DNA of 64,000 bases from a virus. Both the position numbers and the translations under genes were made by a program. How positions within the stretch are numbered: the stretch's first letter is position 1; every line of letters starts with the position of its first letter. This document shows positions 12,173 through 16,178 of this stretch, piece after piece. The stretch lies in IMG/VR virus record IMGVR_UViG_3300045988_169645; one strand, written 5' to 3'. Under the pieces are notes generated by a model. The model saw only the letters and a program-made list of their open reading frames with translations. It had not been told where the DNA came from and ran no database searches.

Positions 12173-13576
12173 TTATCCTAAATGTCTTAATACAAAGTTT
12201 ACAAAATTAGCAACTATTTTATAGAATGTTCCAGTTATTAACAATGTGCCAAAAATCAAACCTGTCAAACATATGAAAATCATATCCTTATGGCTAACTG
12301 TCATGCGGTCTTGCTTCTTACCTAAACTAAAGTTAGCCTCTTTCTCGTCTACTGCAACGTGTAATTTACCAAATGTTAAAATACTTAATACATCTAGGTC
12401 GATTATACTGTTTAATTTATCAAACCAGTAAGCTAAGTACAAAAGGAATATGTATATAGTGAATATAATGCCTATCCACATAACAATAATCCTCATCCAA
12501 GCAATCAAACCATACTCCTTCTTACTATTATTGACATTATTTTCCCAAGAAGATAGATTTTCAAGGTCATTCTGACTAAGATTATCTCTTGTAGCCTTAT
12601 CCAAATATTCTGCTTGAATATTTTCTTCTGATAACTTAGCATAAGCAGATATATCCATTTCACTATAAAAACCACCTGCATAACCAGTTGCTGTATTAGC
12701 CTGTGACTGAGAAGCACCTCCATTATAGTTTCCACCAGATGAGGTAGACGAGCTAACAGCTTCTTTAGCTACCCCTTCATTTAAGGTCGGTGAAGCATTA
12801 TCTGCTACATTTAAATTATACATTCTAACATAAGATGGACTACCTGTAGAGCCTGCAAGTTCTGCTGGAGTTTTATGCTCTGCACTTGATGTACAGAACC
12901 ACTCAAAGACCTCACCATTTACTGCTTGAAACAAATTCTGATAAATATCATACTTCAAATCTGAAAAATAATAGTAATGCTCATAGCCGTCATTAGGGTT
13001 ATAAGTACCGTCATGGCTACTACCTACTCCTCCATTTGTATGACCTTCTGCTTTAGCATCTCCTACTATTGCTCTTAAGTATTTACCATCAGTAAAATAA
13101 ATCTCAATAACTTGCCCTGTACCTGCTCCCCACTGAATACCTGTTGAGCTATTATAAAAATATTTGGCTATAGCTAGTATATAATACTGAGTTCCATTCT
13201 CATCAGTAGCAATACAATAATTATCACTATTATCTGAAAATGTTAAATGTGAACTCTCTCTTACATTACTTCTTAAAGGTGTATTTGTATGGTCACTCTC
13301 TCTAGACCATAAATCACAAACTACTTTACCTTTTGTACTGTCTGCCATATGTGTATTACCCTCTTTAGAGCCAGTAGCATATCCTCCGATATCCTCAGCA
13401 GTTAAAGTATAAGGTAAGGCTACATCATAATACTGTGCCTCCTTAAAACTACTTGGAAAGCCTGAATCACATATAGGATTATCTGTAGCTTTTCCATCAT
13501 TATCCTCTGCAAATAATGTCAAACTGGATAATAATATCAAACTTGACATCATTAAAACTTGCATAAACTTCTTCAT
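12173..13576 (-). CDS. secreted/membrane-anchored paralogue 3: signal peptide + unknown about 300-aa head + conserved C-terminal 2-TM module
   Basis: Signal peptide MKKFMQVLMMSSLILLSSLTLFA. The C-terminal about 130 aa are near-identical to the two upstream genes (EYGLIAWMRIIVMW..GIIFTIYIFLLYLAYWFDKL...FICLTGLIFGTLLITGTFYK). Confidence 0.6.
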   Translation of the reverse strand: MKKFMQVLMMSSLILLSSLTLFAEDNDGKATDNPICDSGFPSSFKEAQYYDVALPYTLTAEDIGGYATGSKEGNTHMADSTKGKVVCDLWSRESDHTNTPLRSNVRESSHLTFSDNSDNYCIATDENGTQYYILAIAKYFYNSSTGIQWGAGTGQVIEIYFTDGKYLRAIVGDAKAEGHTNGGVGSSHDGTYNPNDGYEHYYYFSDLKYDIYQNLFQAVNGEVFEWFCTSSAEHKTPAELAGSTGSPSYVRMYNLNVADNASPTLNEGVAKEAVSSSTSSGGNYNGGASQSQANTATGYAGGFYSEMDISAYAKLSEENIQAEYLDKATRDNLSQNDLENLSSWENNVNNSKKEYGLIAWMRIIVMWIGIIFTIYIFLLYLAYWFDKLNSIIDLDVLSILTFGKLHVAVDEKEANFSLGKKQDRMTVSHKDMIFICLTGLIFGTLLITGTFYKIVANFVNFVLRHLG

Positions 13577-13579
13577 TAG

Positions 13580-14905
13580 CTACCCCAATTTTCTTAAAAT
13601 GAAATTTACAAATCCTGCAACTAGCTTATAAAATGTACCTGTAATAAGCAGAGTACCAAATATAAGTCCAGTTATACAAATAAACAACATATCTTTATGA
13701 TTTACAGTCATTCTATCCTGCTTTTTACCTAGACTAAAATTAGCTTCTTTATCATCTATCGCTACATGAAGTCTACCAAATGTTAATATTGATAAAACAT
13801 CTAAATCTATAATACTATTCAACTTATCAAACCAATAAGCTAGATATAATAAAAATATGTATATTGTAAAGATAATTCCAACCCACATTACAATTATACG
13901 CATCCAAGCTATAAAGCCATATTCCCTATTAGAGTTTTTAACATTATCTTCCCAAGATGATAAATTCTCTAATTCATTCTGACTTAAACTGCTTCTATCT
14001 TTTGGTAACATTGCAGACACATCAACTTCTTGTAATTTTACATAAGCACTTAAGTCGCTTTCAGAATAAAATGTACCTGCATTTAAACCCATATTAGTAA
14101 CATTAGTTGTATCTTGTTTTGTAATTTGAGCATTTCCTCCTGAAGATAGTTTATTAGGTGCAGTTTTATCATTCTTAAAAGTTACAATATAAACTAAATT
14201 ATATTTATTTCCCTCTTCTCTATCATGTAATTCATTATAGCTTACAATACTACCTGAAGCAGGATCATTTAAATAAATAGTTGAGTCATCTAGACCAGCT
14301 AACATTGTGGCATGATTAGCCCAAAATCCATCTCTACCATTATTATGTTGTACATTACCTATATATTCAACACAAAATACAACAAAATAACCTGCATTCC
14401 AAAAACCCTTTATTGCAGATAATTGTTCATCAACCTTCATATCTTTAAAATTTTTATTACCTACCCCAGTTACTACAGTTACTCCACTGTAATCTCCTGT
14501 ATCAGCATTATTCTCTTCCGTAGCTATATCAGTACTTCAAGTAGCGTTTGTAACTTCTCCTGCACCTGAAGTAAAATTACCTAATATCCAACCATCTCCA
14601 GTATGAAATGTACAAGCATTATCAAAACTGGTATAAGTGTCAGTTGTACTCGTTATATCTCCATCAAGTTTATACTCGTCTTTTATAGTCCCACTATTCT
14701 GACAAAGCAACTCAAGTGAAACAACAGTACAACCTGAACCTCGCCCTACCCCTTTTTGATTTATTCTAACTGTACACCAATCCGCTACACTACTATCGGC
14801 ATATGCTGTCAGATTACTACCACATAATAAAACTGTTAGAAATAGTAATAAAAGCCCTTTTAATCTCTTACATTTAACATTCATCTGTCCTCCTAACCAA
14901 TCCAT
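13580..14905 (-). pseudogene. paralogue 2: signal peptide + papain/C39-like cysteine peptidase head + conserved C-terminal 2-TM module, interrupted by an in-frame TGA at 14537-14539
   Basis: ORFs 14537..14905 and 13580..14440 are in the same frame, separated only by one TGA. Upstream half has GSGCTVVSLELL (catalytic Cys candidate). Downstream half has WANHATMLAGLDDSTIYLNDP (H...D...NDP, C39-like). TGA is a normal stop elsewhere in the window. Confidence 0.5.
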
Positions 14906-16128
14906 CTAAGAATTGTATTTACAAAATTCGCTACAATTTTATAGAATGTACCAGTTATGAGTAAAGTTCCAAAAATAAGACCTGTTAAACATATAAATAC
15001 CATATCTTTATGGTTAACTGTCATTCTATCTTGTTTTTTAGCTAAACTAAAATTCGCCTCCTTATCATCCATAGCAACGTGCAATCTTCCAAAAGTCATA
15101 ATCGAAAGTACGTCTAAATCAATAATACTATTAAGCTTATCAAACCAATATGCGAGATATAACAAGAAGATATAAATAGTAAATATGATACCTACCCACA
15201 TTACTATGATTCTCATCCAAGCGATTAGTCCATATTCTTTCTTGGAATTTTTAACATTATCCTCCCAAGATGAGAGATTTTCCAAATCATACTGACTTAA
15301 ATTATCTCTAGTTGCATTATCTAAATATTCCTTCTGAATATTATCCTCTGCAAGCTTAACAAAAGCACTTAACTGCTCCTCAGTATAATAAGCACCACCT
15401 GTAACAGACTGAATTGTTGTAGGTGTATCTGCATTTCCATTTTCATCTACATTACCATTTTCTGTTGTTGTAGGTGCAACTTTACCACTAAATGCATTAT
15501 ATGCTACAGTTGTATTAGGTGTACGCTTTTGTAAATCTTGTAAACAAACCTCGCCATACTTTGTTGGAAAAGTATATGTGGCACAACGGGAACTCGTATC
15601 ATGAAAGCTATCATAGATAGAACCTACCCCATTTGTTATTCCACTATAACAGACGCAACCTTCCATACCTAAAGCAAAATATGCTGCTGCTGACTTTGCA
15701 TCCTTAATATTAGTTGTATCTTTCTCACATTCTTCTGGTGACATACCTGTCAATCCTTTACAAGTAGCACCTCTATATTCAGCCATAAACCAATCATATT
15801 GTGCTGTAATATCAGTAGTTTCTCTACCATTATTACTACACCAAGACTGAAAAGTACCTTTACTGTCTGAAGAAAATTGAAAAGCACCCCAATATCCACT
15901 ACCATCAATATCTGAATTACACCCATGCTCTGCATAAGAATTACCAACTGCTGCTGAAGCCCACCAATCTGTTCCACCTCTACCAAGAATATGAGCATAC
16001 AATTTCTTAGCATTTTCATTATCCTCTATACCATCAGCATGAACACTTAAAGGTTGTATAAATAATAAACTACTACAAAAAAGACAAATAATCAATACTA
16101 AAGCTGTAACCCTATTTAACTTACTCAT
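14893..16128 (-). CDS. paralogue 1: signal peptide + lysozyme/transglycosylase-like head + conserved C-terminal 2-TM module
   Basis: Likely start at MSKLNRVTALVLIICLF (ATG 16126-16128, ribosome-binding site AGGAAA). Head contains AEHGCNSD...GYWGAFQFSS, reminiscent of the phage tail-lysozyme / SLT E...G(L/A)(M/F)Q motif. Shares the C-terminal module. Confidence 0.55.
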   Translation of the reverse strand: MSKLNRVTALVLIICLFCSSLLFIQPLSVHADGIEDNENAKKLYAHILGRGGTDWWASAAVGNSYAEHGCNSDIDGSGYWGAFQFSSDSKGTFQSWCSNNGRETTDITAQYDWFMAEYRGATCKGLTGMSPEECEKDTTNIKDAKSAAAYFALGMEGCVCYSGITNGVGSIYDSFHDTSSRCATYTFPTKYGEVCLQDLQKRTPNTTVAYNAFSGKVAPTTTENGNVDENGNADTPTTIQSVTGGAYYTEEQLSAFVKLAEDNIQKEYLDNATRDNLSQYDLENLSSWEDNVKNSKKEYGLIAWMRIIVMWVGIIFTIYIFLLYLAYWFDKLNSIIDLDVLSIMTFGRLHVAMDDKEANFSLAKKQDRMTVNHKDMVFICLTGLIFGTLLITGTFYKIVANFVNTILRWIG

Positions 16129-16146
16129 ACCAATAATTTCCTTTCT

Positions 16147-16178
16147 AAATAAAAAAGGGAACACCTTTCGGTATTCCC
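16147..16178 (-). terminator. Rho-independent terminator (minus strand)
   Basis: Hairpin GGGAACACC-TTTC-GGTATTCCC (9 bp, one mismatch) followed on the minus strand by TTTTTTATTT. Confidence 0.55.

Follow-up and report, generated by a model that had tools for sequence, protein, structure and literature searches.

Tandem genes for secreted-type proteins with differing, predicted wall-cutting heads share a C-terminal two-helix membrane module

The window analysed here, that is, the whole stretch of 64,000 nucleotides, carries three tightly packed minus-strand genes, gA, gB and gC, and results of our analysis support their assignment as a set of predicted wall-cutting enzymes that differ in their heads and share one membrane anchor. 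The first-pass annotation described them as three consecutive secreted-type open reading frames in tandem, which we could confirm: each product starts with a hydrophobic, signal-peptide-like N-terminus, in which an AXA-type site can be recognised by eye (VHA/DG, AYA/DS and LFA/ED in the three proteins), and the heads that follow cannot be aligned to one another. According to the list of open reading frames, gA and gB overlap (gA stop at 14893-14895, gB start at 14905), and 3 nt separate gB from gC. The features of the region are as follows.

14893..16128, minus strand: gA, 411 aa; signal peptide, PF18013 lysozyme-like head, Ser/Gly/Asn/Thr-rich linker, C-terminal module
13580..14905, minus strand: gB, 441 codons; signal peptide, papain-fold Cys-peptidase head, module; interrupted by an in-frame TGA
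14537..14539, minus strand: the in-frame TGA at codon 123 of gB; the codons for the catalytic Cys (14729-14731) and His (14312-14314) lie on either side of it
12173..13576, minus strand: gC, 467 aa; signal peptide, beta-rich head, disordered linker, module
14896..15399, minus strand: module copy in gA (from alignments, hydropathy and models)
13583..14080, minus strand: module copy in gB (from alignments)
12176..12679, minus strand: module copy in gC (from alignments)
16146..16179, minus strand: intrinsic-terminator-like hairpin with T-run, separating gA from the upstream 280-aa gene
16195..17037, minus strand: 280-aa protein, adjoining the array on its upstream side; a single TM helix at the N-terminus and an extracytoplasmic domain
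17957..18568, minus strand: 203-aa protein with two TM helices, belonging to the same conserved block

The shared C-terminal module is present in all three proteins, as had been proposed, and is longer than was first thought, about 168 aa and not about 130 aa. It begins at GGxFYSE..LSAYVKL, and its last 138 residues are 86-89% identical in amino acid sequence between the three copies. The DNA repeat reported for the modules is also real: the segments 12198-12497, 13605-13904 and 14918-15217 are 74-77% identical over 300 nt without gaps, which is far above chance. Hydropathy analysis reveals two hydrophobic segments, and the module is composed of a helical stalk, a long TM1, a conserved loop of about 45 aa with a small beta-hairpin, TM2 and a terminal amphipathic helix. 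TM1 comprises 28 residues, and its 19-residue Kyte-Doolittle mean exceeds 1.6 over 16 windows. In the models (gC numbering), helices occupy residues 335-388, 429-448 and 450-466 and the strands residues 405-407 and 425-427; the long helices have pLDDT values of about 80-92, and the linker is disordered. If the head is exported, this arrangement would place the stalk outside the cell and the loop of about 45 residues in the cytoplasm. Across 34 diverse members of the module family, nine residues do not vary (W43, R61, I69, Y79, W83, D85, N88, H128 and G148).

The module has no significant match in Pfam, NCBIfam, PHROGs, PADLOC or the PDB sequences; its best PHROG matches are to PHROGs with no function assigned (E 0.04-0.2), and a fold search gave nothing above the level that any long helices give. 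A match to a known holin, spanin or tape-measure family, which would have refuted the first-pass proposal, was thus not found in those five collections. In full-length proteins the module never occurs alone, unlike the small, free-standing membrane-protein format, and we did not retain it as a holin, a spanin or a tape-measure protein.

A hydrolase fold, which the first-pass annotation had made a test of its proposal, is present in two of the three heads. The head of gA matches the Pfam family PF18013 (Phage_lysozyme2) with 47.2 bits against a gathering cut-off of 28.2 (E 3.3e-12), in residues 50-170 of a 423-aa open reading frame (about 15655-16017) and profile positions 1-119 of 140. We looked in it for the catalytic motif of this family, GN...E followed by G.G..QW/F; by eye, gA reads VGNSYAEHG and GYWGAFQF where canonical PF18013 heads read GNVSHESGG and GHGIVQWS. 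The GTG at 16164, listed earlier as the start of gA, is probably wrong: it falls within the terminator, the ribosome binding site and the ATG at 16128, the real start, lie downstream of that terminator, and the gA orthologue in a relative that is 98.3% identical (L005) is 411 aa long. The head of gB has a papain fold and is a cysteine peptidase of clan CA type (C39, C10, C47-like), with the catalytic Cys and His, a third Asp/Asn and an oxyanion-hole Gln before the Cys; among 27 homologues there is no variation at C59, H198 or D214 and almost none at Q50. Of the proposed papain/C39-like nature of this head, the fold therefore stands, and membership of Pfam Peptidase_C39 or C39_2 does not: neither model matches the gB head at E<=1 or any of 100 family members at E<=1e-3, and among PDB sequences only a non-significant match was obtained (3erv, E 0.39). 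The head of gC is beta-rich and of no recognised fold, and a gC profile search of PDB sequences found nothing; heads of the same type recur in the family. Between near-identical genomes, the gC head is 63% identical and the module 95% identical.

The middle gene is not intact in this window: the TGA at codon 123 divides gB into the open reading frames 14537-14905 and 13580-14440. In L005 the corresponding codon (protein P0007) is TGG, the TGA being one of 22 nucleotide differences between the two sequences, and Trp is kept at this alignment column in most homologues. No sign of TGA recoding was seen elsewhere in the 64-kb window. The nonsense allele implies that at least one member of the array is dispensable.

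The layout of a constant anchor with exchangeable heads, suggested by the trio, holds for a whole family. An exhaustive profile search of metagenomes resulted in 611 clusters at 50% identity, almost confined to gut metagenomes. Among the best 150 matches of these clusters, the module lies within 12 residues of the C-terminus in 149, and 134 of 142 full-length members have signal-peptide-like N-termini. The search of relatives for other heads on the module that had been suggested was productive: among 100 members, 61 carry PF18013, four NlpC/P60 and two or three GDSL, in addition to heads of the gA, gB and gC types, and some members have two heads (e.g., P0016). The family has no member among 50,697 reference phage records, and a scan by one short motif found it in one of 185,579 bacterial species genomes. 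Syntenic relatives, on contigs of up to about 410 kb, have two, three or four array genes at the same locus, in varying head order. At that locus in L015 there is a PF18013 protein without the module, which has a plain hydrophobic tail at its C-terminus instead; this is a sign that anchoring matters.

The modules group by genome, with 79-85% amino acid identity within most genomes and 37-51% between lineages, despite the fact that head types are common to several lineages. The module thus evolves in concert within genomes. Synonymous sites between module copies are saturated, and at identical residues codons are shared at chance level, with amino acid identity of 79-89%; this combination indicates a strong constraint on the module. 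The copy number of two to four, the differing head order and the divergent gC head would, by analogy, represent the domain shuffling that is typical of lysins. In L004 and L009, which belong to another type of element, the gene after the single homologue encodes a conserved protein of 67-68 aa with two TM helices, possibly a holin-like partner.

The terminator proposed upstream of the cluster was confirmed as a hairpin with a T-run on the minus strand (16179-16156). It reads AGGGAATACC-GAAA-GGTGTTCCCT followed by the T-run, with a 10-bp stem containing five GC pairs and a GAAA loop (TTTTTATTT). The space from it to the gA ribosome binding site is too small for a promoter, which suggests low expression by read-through. 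The products of 16195-17037 and 17957-18568 are membrane proteins, as had been stated; their genes do not follow the trio and are upstream of it in the direction of transcription. The 280-aa protein is kept in all syntenic relatives (278-286 aa), has no Pfam family and was not found beside the single-copy homologue in L009. The array is surrounded by replication genes encoding PolA, an HD protein, a helicase, a primase and a sigma factor; PolA contains an intein, an HNH endonuclease is also encoded, and the block has good PHROG matches (phrog_30773, E 1e-110; phrog_351, E 1e-83). The window, of 33% GC, also encodes a YkuD + PG_binding_4 L,D-transpeptidase with an N-terminal TM anchor, about 46 kb from the array and unlinked to it, as well as an SPFH/flotillin-like protein. 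No phage structural genes were seen in the 64 kb.

We tentatively favour a reading in which the trio are peptidoglycan hydrolases that would be exported by Sec, stay bound to the outside of the producing cell's membrane and cut the wall of that cell, most likely as the lysis or egress set of a huge phage; export, topology, activity, timing and gating are what we infer from the features described above. The proteins would leave the cytoplasm via Sec with cleavage of the signal peptide, and the module would then hold them on the outer face of the cytoplasmic membrane, where the disordered linker of 30-40 residues would give every head access to that cell's wall. Different bonds would be cut by the heads, that of gA being a predicted lysozyme-like glycosidase and that of gB a predicted papain-fold peptidase. 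The anchor would localise and restrain enzymes placed in the envelope ahead of time, and either de-energisation of the membrane or a partner acting on the conserved loop would end this restraint. SAR-like release is unlikely, since TM1 is long and strongly hydrophobic.

Several observations count against lysis: the array lies among replication genes and outside any recognisable lysis cassette, behind a terminator with no promoter, and neither a holin nor a releasin was identified in the window. The dispensable gB and the lack of phage structural genes in the 64 kb also count against this reading, and in a host with a thick Gram-positive wall tethering would limit the enzymes to the inner layers. 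A close rival, which we consider possible, is non-lytic wall remodelling, where the tethered hydrolases serve as 'space-makers' during a long infection and, together with the phage L,D-transpeptidase and the flotillin-like protein, let the wall go on growing or enlarging once the host is shut off. These two proteins, encoded in the same window, point to remodelling over lysis, and the location amid early-type replication genes, a permanent tether limiting the reach to membrane-proximal wall and the redundancy of singly dispensable array members agree with it. The situation would resemble that of CwlO, which is held at the membrane by FtsEX in Bacillus. On the other hand, the fast head turnover and variable copy number fit conflict- or lysin-type evolution better than housekeeping, the transpeptidase gene is distant from the array, and, to our knowledge, Firmicutes do not typically use lysozyme-like glycosidases as growth hydrolases. 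A further reading, which seems rather unlikely to us, makes the module an active transmembrane control device and not a passive anchor: the invariant R61, D85, N88 and H128, at the membrane boundaries and in the loop, would couple the internal state of the cell or a lineage-specific phage partner to the attached wall enzyme, the paralogous modules of one genome would have to stay alike because of co-assembly or a common partner, and the transpeptidase and the flotillin-like protein would complete a machine with which huge gut phages remodel the wall.

Three further explanations are less probable. Superinfection exclusion or receptor modification, in which enzymes on an infected or lysogenic cell would trim its wall or wall polymers and block adsorption or injection of other phages, is an unlikely one. 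The single-copy homologue of L004 and L009 lies beside a gene of the integrase family, a position usual for exclusion genes, fast-changing heads would fit an arms race, and some heads are GDSL/SGNH esterases, a class of receptor-destroying enzymes. However, known exclusion proteins such as Ltp and Sie2009 are not wall hydrolases, sets of glycosidases and peptidases would be a costly way of masking receptors, the trio has no PADLOC match, and the only match, a weak one, to a superinfection-exclusion PHROG (E 0.005) is in the 280-aa neighbour and not in the trio. More doubtful still is the possibility that the element is a megaplasmid and not a phage, the trio being channel-opening hydrolases (VirB1-, CwlT- or PrgK-like) of a conjugative or other secretion apparatus. 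The HD-domain protein and the RecD/UvrD-type helicase flanking the array recall the MOBH-like HD relaxase and separate helicase of the Hodor megaplasmids, which have 44-47% GC and abundant Phage_lysozyme2 domains and were at first classed as huge phages (10.64898/2026.02.21.707213), and the window shows no phage structural gene. Against this, about 36 ORFs of the window, scanned with Pfam and/or PHROGs, gave no VirB4, VirD4, Rep_3 or ParA/B, and neither these ORFs nor the annotated genes of seven related loci show linkage to a T4SS (VirB4, VirD4, relaxase and others); the block has the replication genes and PHROG matches given above, and its GC content is 33%, against the 44-47% of Hodors. Conjugative hydrolases are, moreover, usually anchored at the N-terminus and single in each system. 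Polymorphic toxins directed against neighbouring bacteria are highly improbable: the likeness to polymorphic effectors that was noted at first concerns the layout only, i.e., a constant part with variable enzymatic parts in tandem arrays. In polymorphic toxin systems a constant N-terminal trafficking part precedes a variable C-terminal toxin accompanied by an immunity gene, whereas here the polarity is reversed, the constant C-terminal anchor would keep the enzyme on its producer, and the genes abut or overlap, so that there is no room, and no intervening ORF, for immunity.

The trio represents a large family without a name, built on a domain that has no description in any library searched, and this family may partly explain the abundance of PF18013 in protein clusters of jumbo gut phages. 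If the proteins are lysis enzymes, they would add a third type of lysin control to the SAR and signal-peptide types, one that pairs a signal peptide at the N-terminus with a hairpin anchor at the C-terminus and is split over an array, and they could hint at the way in which huge phages open their hosts, a process for which most of the lysis genes have yet to be recognised. As remodelling enzymes, if that is their role, they would exemplify a phage takeover of wall growth. Paralogous modules that are alike within a genome despite randomised synonymous sites allow protein-level co-evolution to be compared with gene conversion, and the heads form a ready collection of diverse predicted wall hydrolases for gut anaerobes.

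Among described phages, the Jug (jumbo gut) phages have genomes of 360-402 kb with 27-30% GC, many group I introns and PF18013 among their commonest domains (PMC12880540). Set beside this description, relatives of our element lie on contigs of 382-410 kb, PF18013 is frequent and PolA carries an intein; the window, however, has 33% GC, and no Rfam intron was found in its 64 kb. Membrane-held local cutting, several catalytic types and a helical stalk between membrane and enzyme are also features of the membrane-anchored wall hydrolases of Gram-positive conjugation systems (CwlT, PrgK, TcpG) and of the FtsEX-controlled hydrolases CwlO, PcsB and RipC. Those enzymes have an N-terminal anchor or a separate ABC-type partner, unlike the trio with its C-terminal module; no sequence relationship of the module to them was found, and there are no T4SS or FtsEX genes near the array. 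The modular endolysins of phages infecting Gram-positive bacteria likewise have the enzyme head(s) first and a targeting part last, which stops the enzyme from diffusing away, and, as in the present family (PF18013, NlpC/P60, Cys peptidase), their heads are shuffled freely; in them the targeting part is a cell-wall-binding domain, while in the trio it is a membrane hairpin, combined with signal peptides, and the specificities are split over genes sharing one anchor.

Export before lysis, as proposed for the trio, is known for Sec-exported and SAR endolysins (P1 Lyz, phage 21 R, Mu gp22), which are kept inactive until the membrane is de-energised; Mu gp22 needs the releasin gp25 to be freed (PMC9239132). 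Lys44 of Oenococcus phage fOg44 is summarised in PMC7143992 as a Sec-exported endolysin with a cleavable signal peptide. Such enzymes would share with the trio a harmless stay at the membrane or wall until de-energisation or the action of a partner on a short cytoplasmic part. SAR anchors, however, are N-terminal, weakly hydrophobic and leave the bilayer, whereas the N-termini of the trio look like cleavable signal peptides and the anchor is C-terminal with a long, strongly hydrophobic TM1, and we did not assign the trio as SAR endolysins. A close format is that of endolysins needing a C-terminal TM domain, such as M4Lys of Salmonella phage BSPM4 (PMC7143992), the endolysin of Hafnia phage Enc34, for which a catalytic-domain structure is available (PMC8943055), and LysAP of Acidovorax phage AP1 (PMC8879335). 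Like the trio, they have an N-terminal wall-degrading domain and a C-terminal membrane segment, required in their case for localisation and lysis, and are membrane-associated and not free in the cytoplasm. They lack a signal peptide, have a single C-terminal TM and come from lysis cassettes of small phages of Gram-negative hosts, whereas the trio has signal-peptide-like N-termini, a module of about 168 aa with two TM segments and a loop, and a place among replication genes in sets of two to four paralogues. On these differences we set the trio apart from them, a distinction drawn from published descriptions, the PDB profile searches with the module and gC not covering the TM segments of these endolysins. 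The trio may nevertheless work in a way similar to theirs, and the array would then, by analogy, be a new form of membrane-tethered phage lysins, in which the anchor family is undescribed and the kind of system is already known.

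The genes of gA, gB, and gC, three products that each carry a signal-peptide-like N-terminus, a head of their own, and a common C-terminal module, lie close together on the minus strand, accompanied by two genes of membrane proteins:

12173-13576, minus strand: gC
13580-14440 and 14537-14905, minus strand: gB, appearing in the ORF list as two ORFs
14893-16164, minus strand: gA, appearing in the ORF list with a GTG start
16195-17037, minus strand: 280-aa protein with one TM segment
17957-18568, minus strand: 203-aa protein with two TM segments

The gap between gB and gC is 3 nt, and gA and gB either overlap or lie 8 nt apart, according to which start of gB is chosen. 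A terminator-like hairpin with a T-run occupies positions 16179-16156 of the minus strand. Because an RBS-like AGAAAGGAAA and an ATG at 16128 follow it directly, and because the gA orthologue in a close relative (locus L005) has 411 aa, the start of gA is most likely at 16128, the GTG at 16164 being an artefact of ORF listing. When aligned, the three products bear out the first-pass annotation in that their N-terminal parts are unrelated and their C-terminal ~168 residues are common, from GGxFYSE..LSAYVKL on. The DNA repeat reported there is likewise present: gap-free comparison of 12198-12497, 13605-13904, and 14918-15217 over 300 nt gives identities of 74-77%. The two membrane proteins, described as following the cluster, do exist but are situated upstream of it by the direction of transcription.

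The first-pass annotation overlooked an in-frame stop in gB. When read in one frame, the region 13580-14905 comprises 441 codons with a sole in-frame TGA at codon 123 (14537-14539, minus strand). The L005 counterpart of gB (P0007) differs at 22 of 1326 nt (98.3% nucleotide identity) and reads TGG here, and Trp is conserved in this column in most homologues. Recoding of TGA in the window was rejected, as gB is the only gene with a mid-gene TGA, several ORFs terminate in TGA, and L005 has TGG. Since, in addition, the TGA falls between the catalytic Cys and His, gB of the window is a nonsense allele, or possibly the product of a sequencing or assembly error.

Wall-hydrolase domains could be assigned to two of the three heads. 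That of gA matches the Pfam family PF18013 (Phage_lysozyme2) with an E value of 3.3e-12, above the gathering score. The head of gB has no match in Pfam, PHROG, or NCBIfam, but an alignment of 29 homologous heads from the family of module-bearing proteins reveals invariant C59, H198, and D214 and a nearly invariant Q50. Together with the AlphaFold model built from the homologue alignment (mean pLDDT of 79, and >90 across most of the head), these residues identify the gB head as a predicted papain-fold cysteine peptidase, an assignment that concerns the fold only and places it outside every Pfam C39 family. Heads of the gC type have 21 homologues, with the common motifs YYD, PY, IGG, DG, and H. 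The model of gC is mostly beta (pLDDT of 72); neither profile and sequence searches against PDB nor Foldseek at E<=0.001 returned a match for its head. Double-psi beta-barrels, among them kiwellin and the N domain of p97, are over-represented among the weak Foldseek matches; this may serve as a lead only. Some family proteins contain two heads, for example those of the NlpC/P60 and gB types in P0016 and P0023.

The C-terminal module contains two hydrophobic helices and is under very strong constraint. Its hydropathy profile reveals TM1 (IAWMRIIVMWVGIIFTIYIFLLYLAYWF) and TM2 (MVFICLTGLIFGTLLITGTF), separated by a 45-residue loop. The models of gB and gC give the module the same shape: short helices are followed by a long helix that runs from the outside through TM1, a loop with a small beta-hairpin, TM2, and a terminal amphipathic helix, and a disordered linker of 30-40 residues (pLDDT <50) joins the head to the module. 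If the signal peptide is cleaved, the loop would be located inside, and both the head and the C-terminus outside. Among 34 diverse members, W43, R61, I69, Y79, W83, D85, N88, H128, and G148 of the module are invariant, and its most conserved stretch is AYWFDR.NN together with the loop. No family match to the module was found in Pfam, PHROGs, NCBIfam, or PADLOC, and no match among PDB sequences. PADLOC returned no match for the trio either, and its membership in a defence system was rejected on this basis.

A word-indexed protein search with the module returned only 6 truncated fragments, and with the gC head none, although homologues exist. As the word index misses the family, a set of 1.84 billion representative proteins had to be searched exhaustively with a profile; this detected 611 module-bearing proteins (E<=1e-3), of which 317 reach E<=1e-10 and 112 reach E<=1e-30. 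In 149 of the best 150 of the 611 matches, at most 12 residues follow the module, and of the 142 among these 150 that have a full head, 134 possess a hydrophobic N-terminal segment. The heads of 100 members include PF18013 (61), NlpC/P60 (4), and GDSL (2-3) domains, and most of the remainder are of gB, gC, or gA type. The clusters are named 'hypothetical protein' throughout, and nearly all of them are metagenomic. A scan of 185,579 species genomes with a single short peptide motif found only one locus, in a mouse-gut Clostridia MAG. Two locus scans of viral contigs gave one locus and none, respectively, and neither the trio nor the module has a match in 50,697 phage records by megablast and tblastn. 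The helicase, PolA, and transpeptidase of the window have only matches of <32% identity in reference collections.

The array, i.e., the tandem run of genes of this family, is embedded in a conserved block in which genes for PolA, proteins of 208 aa, 126 aa, and ~203 aa (two TM segments), an HD protein, and a ~280-aa protein (one TM segment) precede it, and genes for a RecD/UvrD-type helicase, an HD_5 protein, sigma-70, and primase follow it; in L015 the HD_5 protein and sigma-70 are missing. Inside this block, the content of the array differs from genome to genome:

L005: three genes, as in the window
L006: two genes, both PF18013
L010: three genes, namely gC-type, NlpC/P60 + gB-type, and gA-type (PF18013)
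L012: two genes
L015: four genes, the first encoding a PF18013 protein with just a plain hydrophobic C-terminal tail

This first L015 gene (8985-9995) encodes a protein of 336 aa without the module, whose hydrophobic tail is …SGASILLVALSFVISLLPWG. In L004 and L009, which represent a different type of element, the family member is single-copy and is followed by a conserved protein of 67-68 aa and then by an integrase-family gene, an arrangement that may be holin-like. The small protein (L004 10524-10727, L009 11401-11607) combines two TM helices with a basic loop and lies directly after the family member; the integrase-family gene is located ~450 bp beyond it. The notion of a partner gene conserved beside the family in all lineages was rejected, as nothing corresponding to the 280-aa protein lies next to the L009 homologue. 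Weak matches of the 280-aa protein to PADLOC PD-T4-6 (E of 2.6e-4, in its TM and low-complexity part) and to a PHROG bearing a superinfection-exclusion annotation (E of 0.005) are probably compositional.

The pattern of sequence similarities between the modules does not follow that of the heads. In the window, the copies of the module are 86-89% identical in amino acid sequence over 138 residues. At identical residues, they share 53, 49, and 42 codons in the three pairs, as compared to 54.5, 55.7, and 53.1 expected from independent draws from the codon usage of the window. Since these counts equal those of independent draws, the synonymous sites can be regarded as saturated. There is no support for selection against identical DNA in the repeats, as the sharing of codons is at or slightly below chance (P of 0.41, 0.11, and 0.024). 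The codon pattern is the same in L006, L012, L015, and L010. Module identity within a genome is 79-85% in the window/L005, L006, L012, and L015, the fourth L015 copy being 65-67% identical to the others, and 52-57% in L010; between lineages it is only 37-51%. Head types are common to several lineages, with 31-50% identity. Under plain vertical descent, the modules of gC-type genes should be closest to each other, but they are not, which implies that the module evolves in concert within a genome. Among 10 paralogue pairs, drawn from 5 genomes, there was no sign of recent gene conversion, and no clear conversion tracts were found between the window and L005. The likeness of the modules may result either from old conversions followed by very strong selection or from co-evolution at the protein level; the latter would arise from a lineage-specific partner or from mutual assembly of the modules. 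In the case of gC, the head is only 63% identical between the window (12680-13576) and L005 (11330-12188), compared with ~95% for the signal peptide and module, 98% for the gA head, and near-identity of the two genomes otherwise. The gC head was thus replaced or diversified very fast. Another family protein, P0009, retains the signal peptide and module of gC with a far more divergent head.

Other features of the window are as follows:

5035-6039, minus strand: sigma-70-family factor (phrog_351, E 1e-83; Sigma70_r2-r4 in relatives), adjoining a Toprim primase and a HAD hydrolase
7442-8704, minus strand: transposase-like ORF (phrog_506, E 9e-36), flanked by the helicase and HD_5 genes
19728-24272, minus strand: family A DNA polymerase (PolA), 1514 aa, with an inserted LAGLIDADG-type intein
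24800-45800, minus strand: series of large ORFs, the longest of 762 aa
37223-38155, minus strand: ligase-like ORF
39286-40458, minus strand: HD protein
46709-47356, minus strand: Peptidase_C26/class-I glutamine amidotransferase-like protein (E 2.5e-27)
47369-48475, minus strand: HipA_C-like protein (weak, below the Pfam cut-off), after the Peptidase_C26 gene
54723-55847, minus strand: flotillin/SPFH (Band 7) family protein
61876-63180, minus strand: L,D-transpeptidase (YkuD, E 2.7e-22) with PG_binding_4 and an N-terminal TM anchor

The transposase-like ORF appears to be an insertion peculiar to this genome, because the helicase and HD_5 genes are adjacent in L005, L006, L010, and L012. The PolA of relatives has 1151, 1288, or ~1511-1516 aa; the intein insert is therefore variable. 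Apart from the HD protein and the ligase-like ORF, the scanned ORFs of 24800-45800 have no Pfam or PHROG match. The L,D-transpeptidase is unusual in a phage-like genome, with only 6 weak matches in 50,697 phage records.

The L012 locus resides on a scaffold of 409,877 bp (ENA ERZ28575008 scaffold_2) and other family members on contigs of 290-441 kb; therefore, the window belongs to a huge, phage-like element, of a lineage with a genome of ~400 kb. A phage nature is suggested by PolA with the intein, the primase, sigma factor, and HNH endonuclease, as well as by good PHROG matches, and the ORFs scanned in the window included none for a T4SS or for plasmid replication. No capsid, portal, terminase, or tail genes were recognised in these 64 kb either, so that this reading stays provisional. 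Jug phages have genomes of 360-402 kb with 27-30% GC and PF18013 among their commonest domains (PMC12880540). Hodor megaplasmids, originally filed as huge phages, are of ~357 kb with 44-47% GC and encode an HD-type relaxase and a separate helicase (10.64898/2026.02.21.707213). When compared by these published descriptions, the lineage of the window is similar in size to both, but its GC content of 33% does not fit, and it matches neither cleanly. Rfam introns and tRNAs, sought as lineage markers, were absent from the window.

Taken together, the signal peptides, hydrolase domains, and module lead us to infer that these proteins are exported, tethered to the outer face of the membrane, and act on the wall of the cell that produces them. 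Virion-borne lysins are ruled out by the signal peptides and membrane anchors, and diffusible polymorphic toxins by the reversed polarity, the anchor, and the absence of immunity genes. We tentatively rank first the possibility that the array encodes pre-positioned, tethered lysis enzymes. Free shuffling of catalytic heads ahead of a constant C-terminal targeting part is an endolysin hallmark, and it is what the family exhibits; the small two-TM protein after the single-copy homologues also argues for lysis. Experimental precedents exist for Sec-exported, SAR, and C-terminal-TMD endolysins (PMC7143992, PMC8943055, PMC8879335, PMC9239132). Non-lytic remodelling of the wall, although somewhat doubtful, comes a close second, because the array lies amid replication genes and behind a terminator, TM1 is strongly hydrophobic, and the window also encodes the membrane-anchored L,D-transpeptidase and the flotillin-like protein, all of which speak against lysis. 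A role in superinfection exclusion seems improbable, and that of secretion-apparatus hydrolases of a megaplasmid more improbable still.

As membrane-tethered and exported phage wall hydrolases are already known, the system is not new in kind. What distinguishes it from them is the anchor module, for which no searched library has a description, the presence of both a signal peptide and a C-terminal hairpin, the occurrence of 2-4 paralogues in tandem at one fixed position in gut elements of very large size, and the fact that the module evolves in concert, with its synonymous sites saturated.
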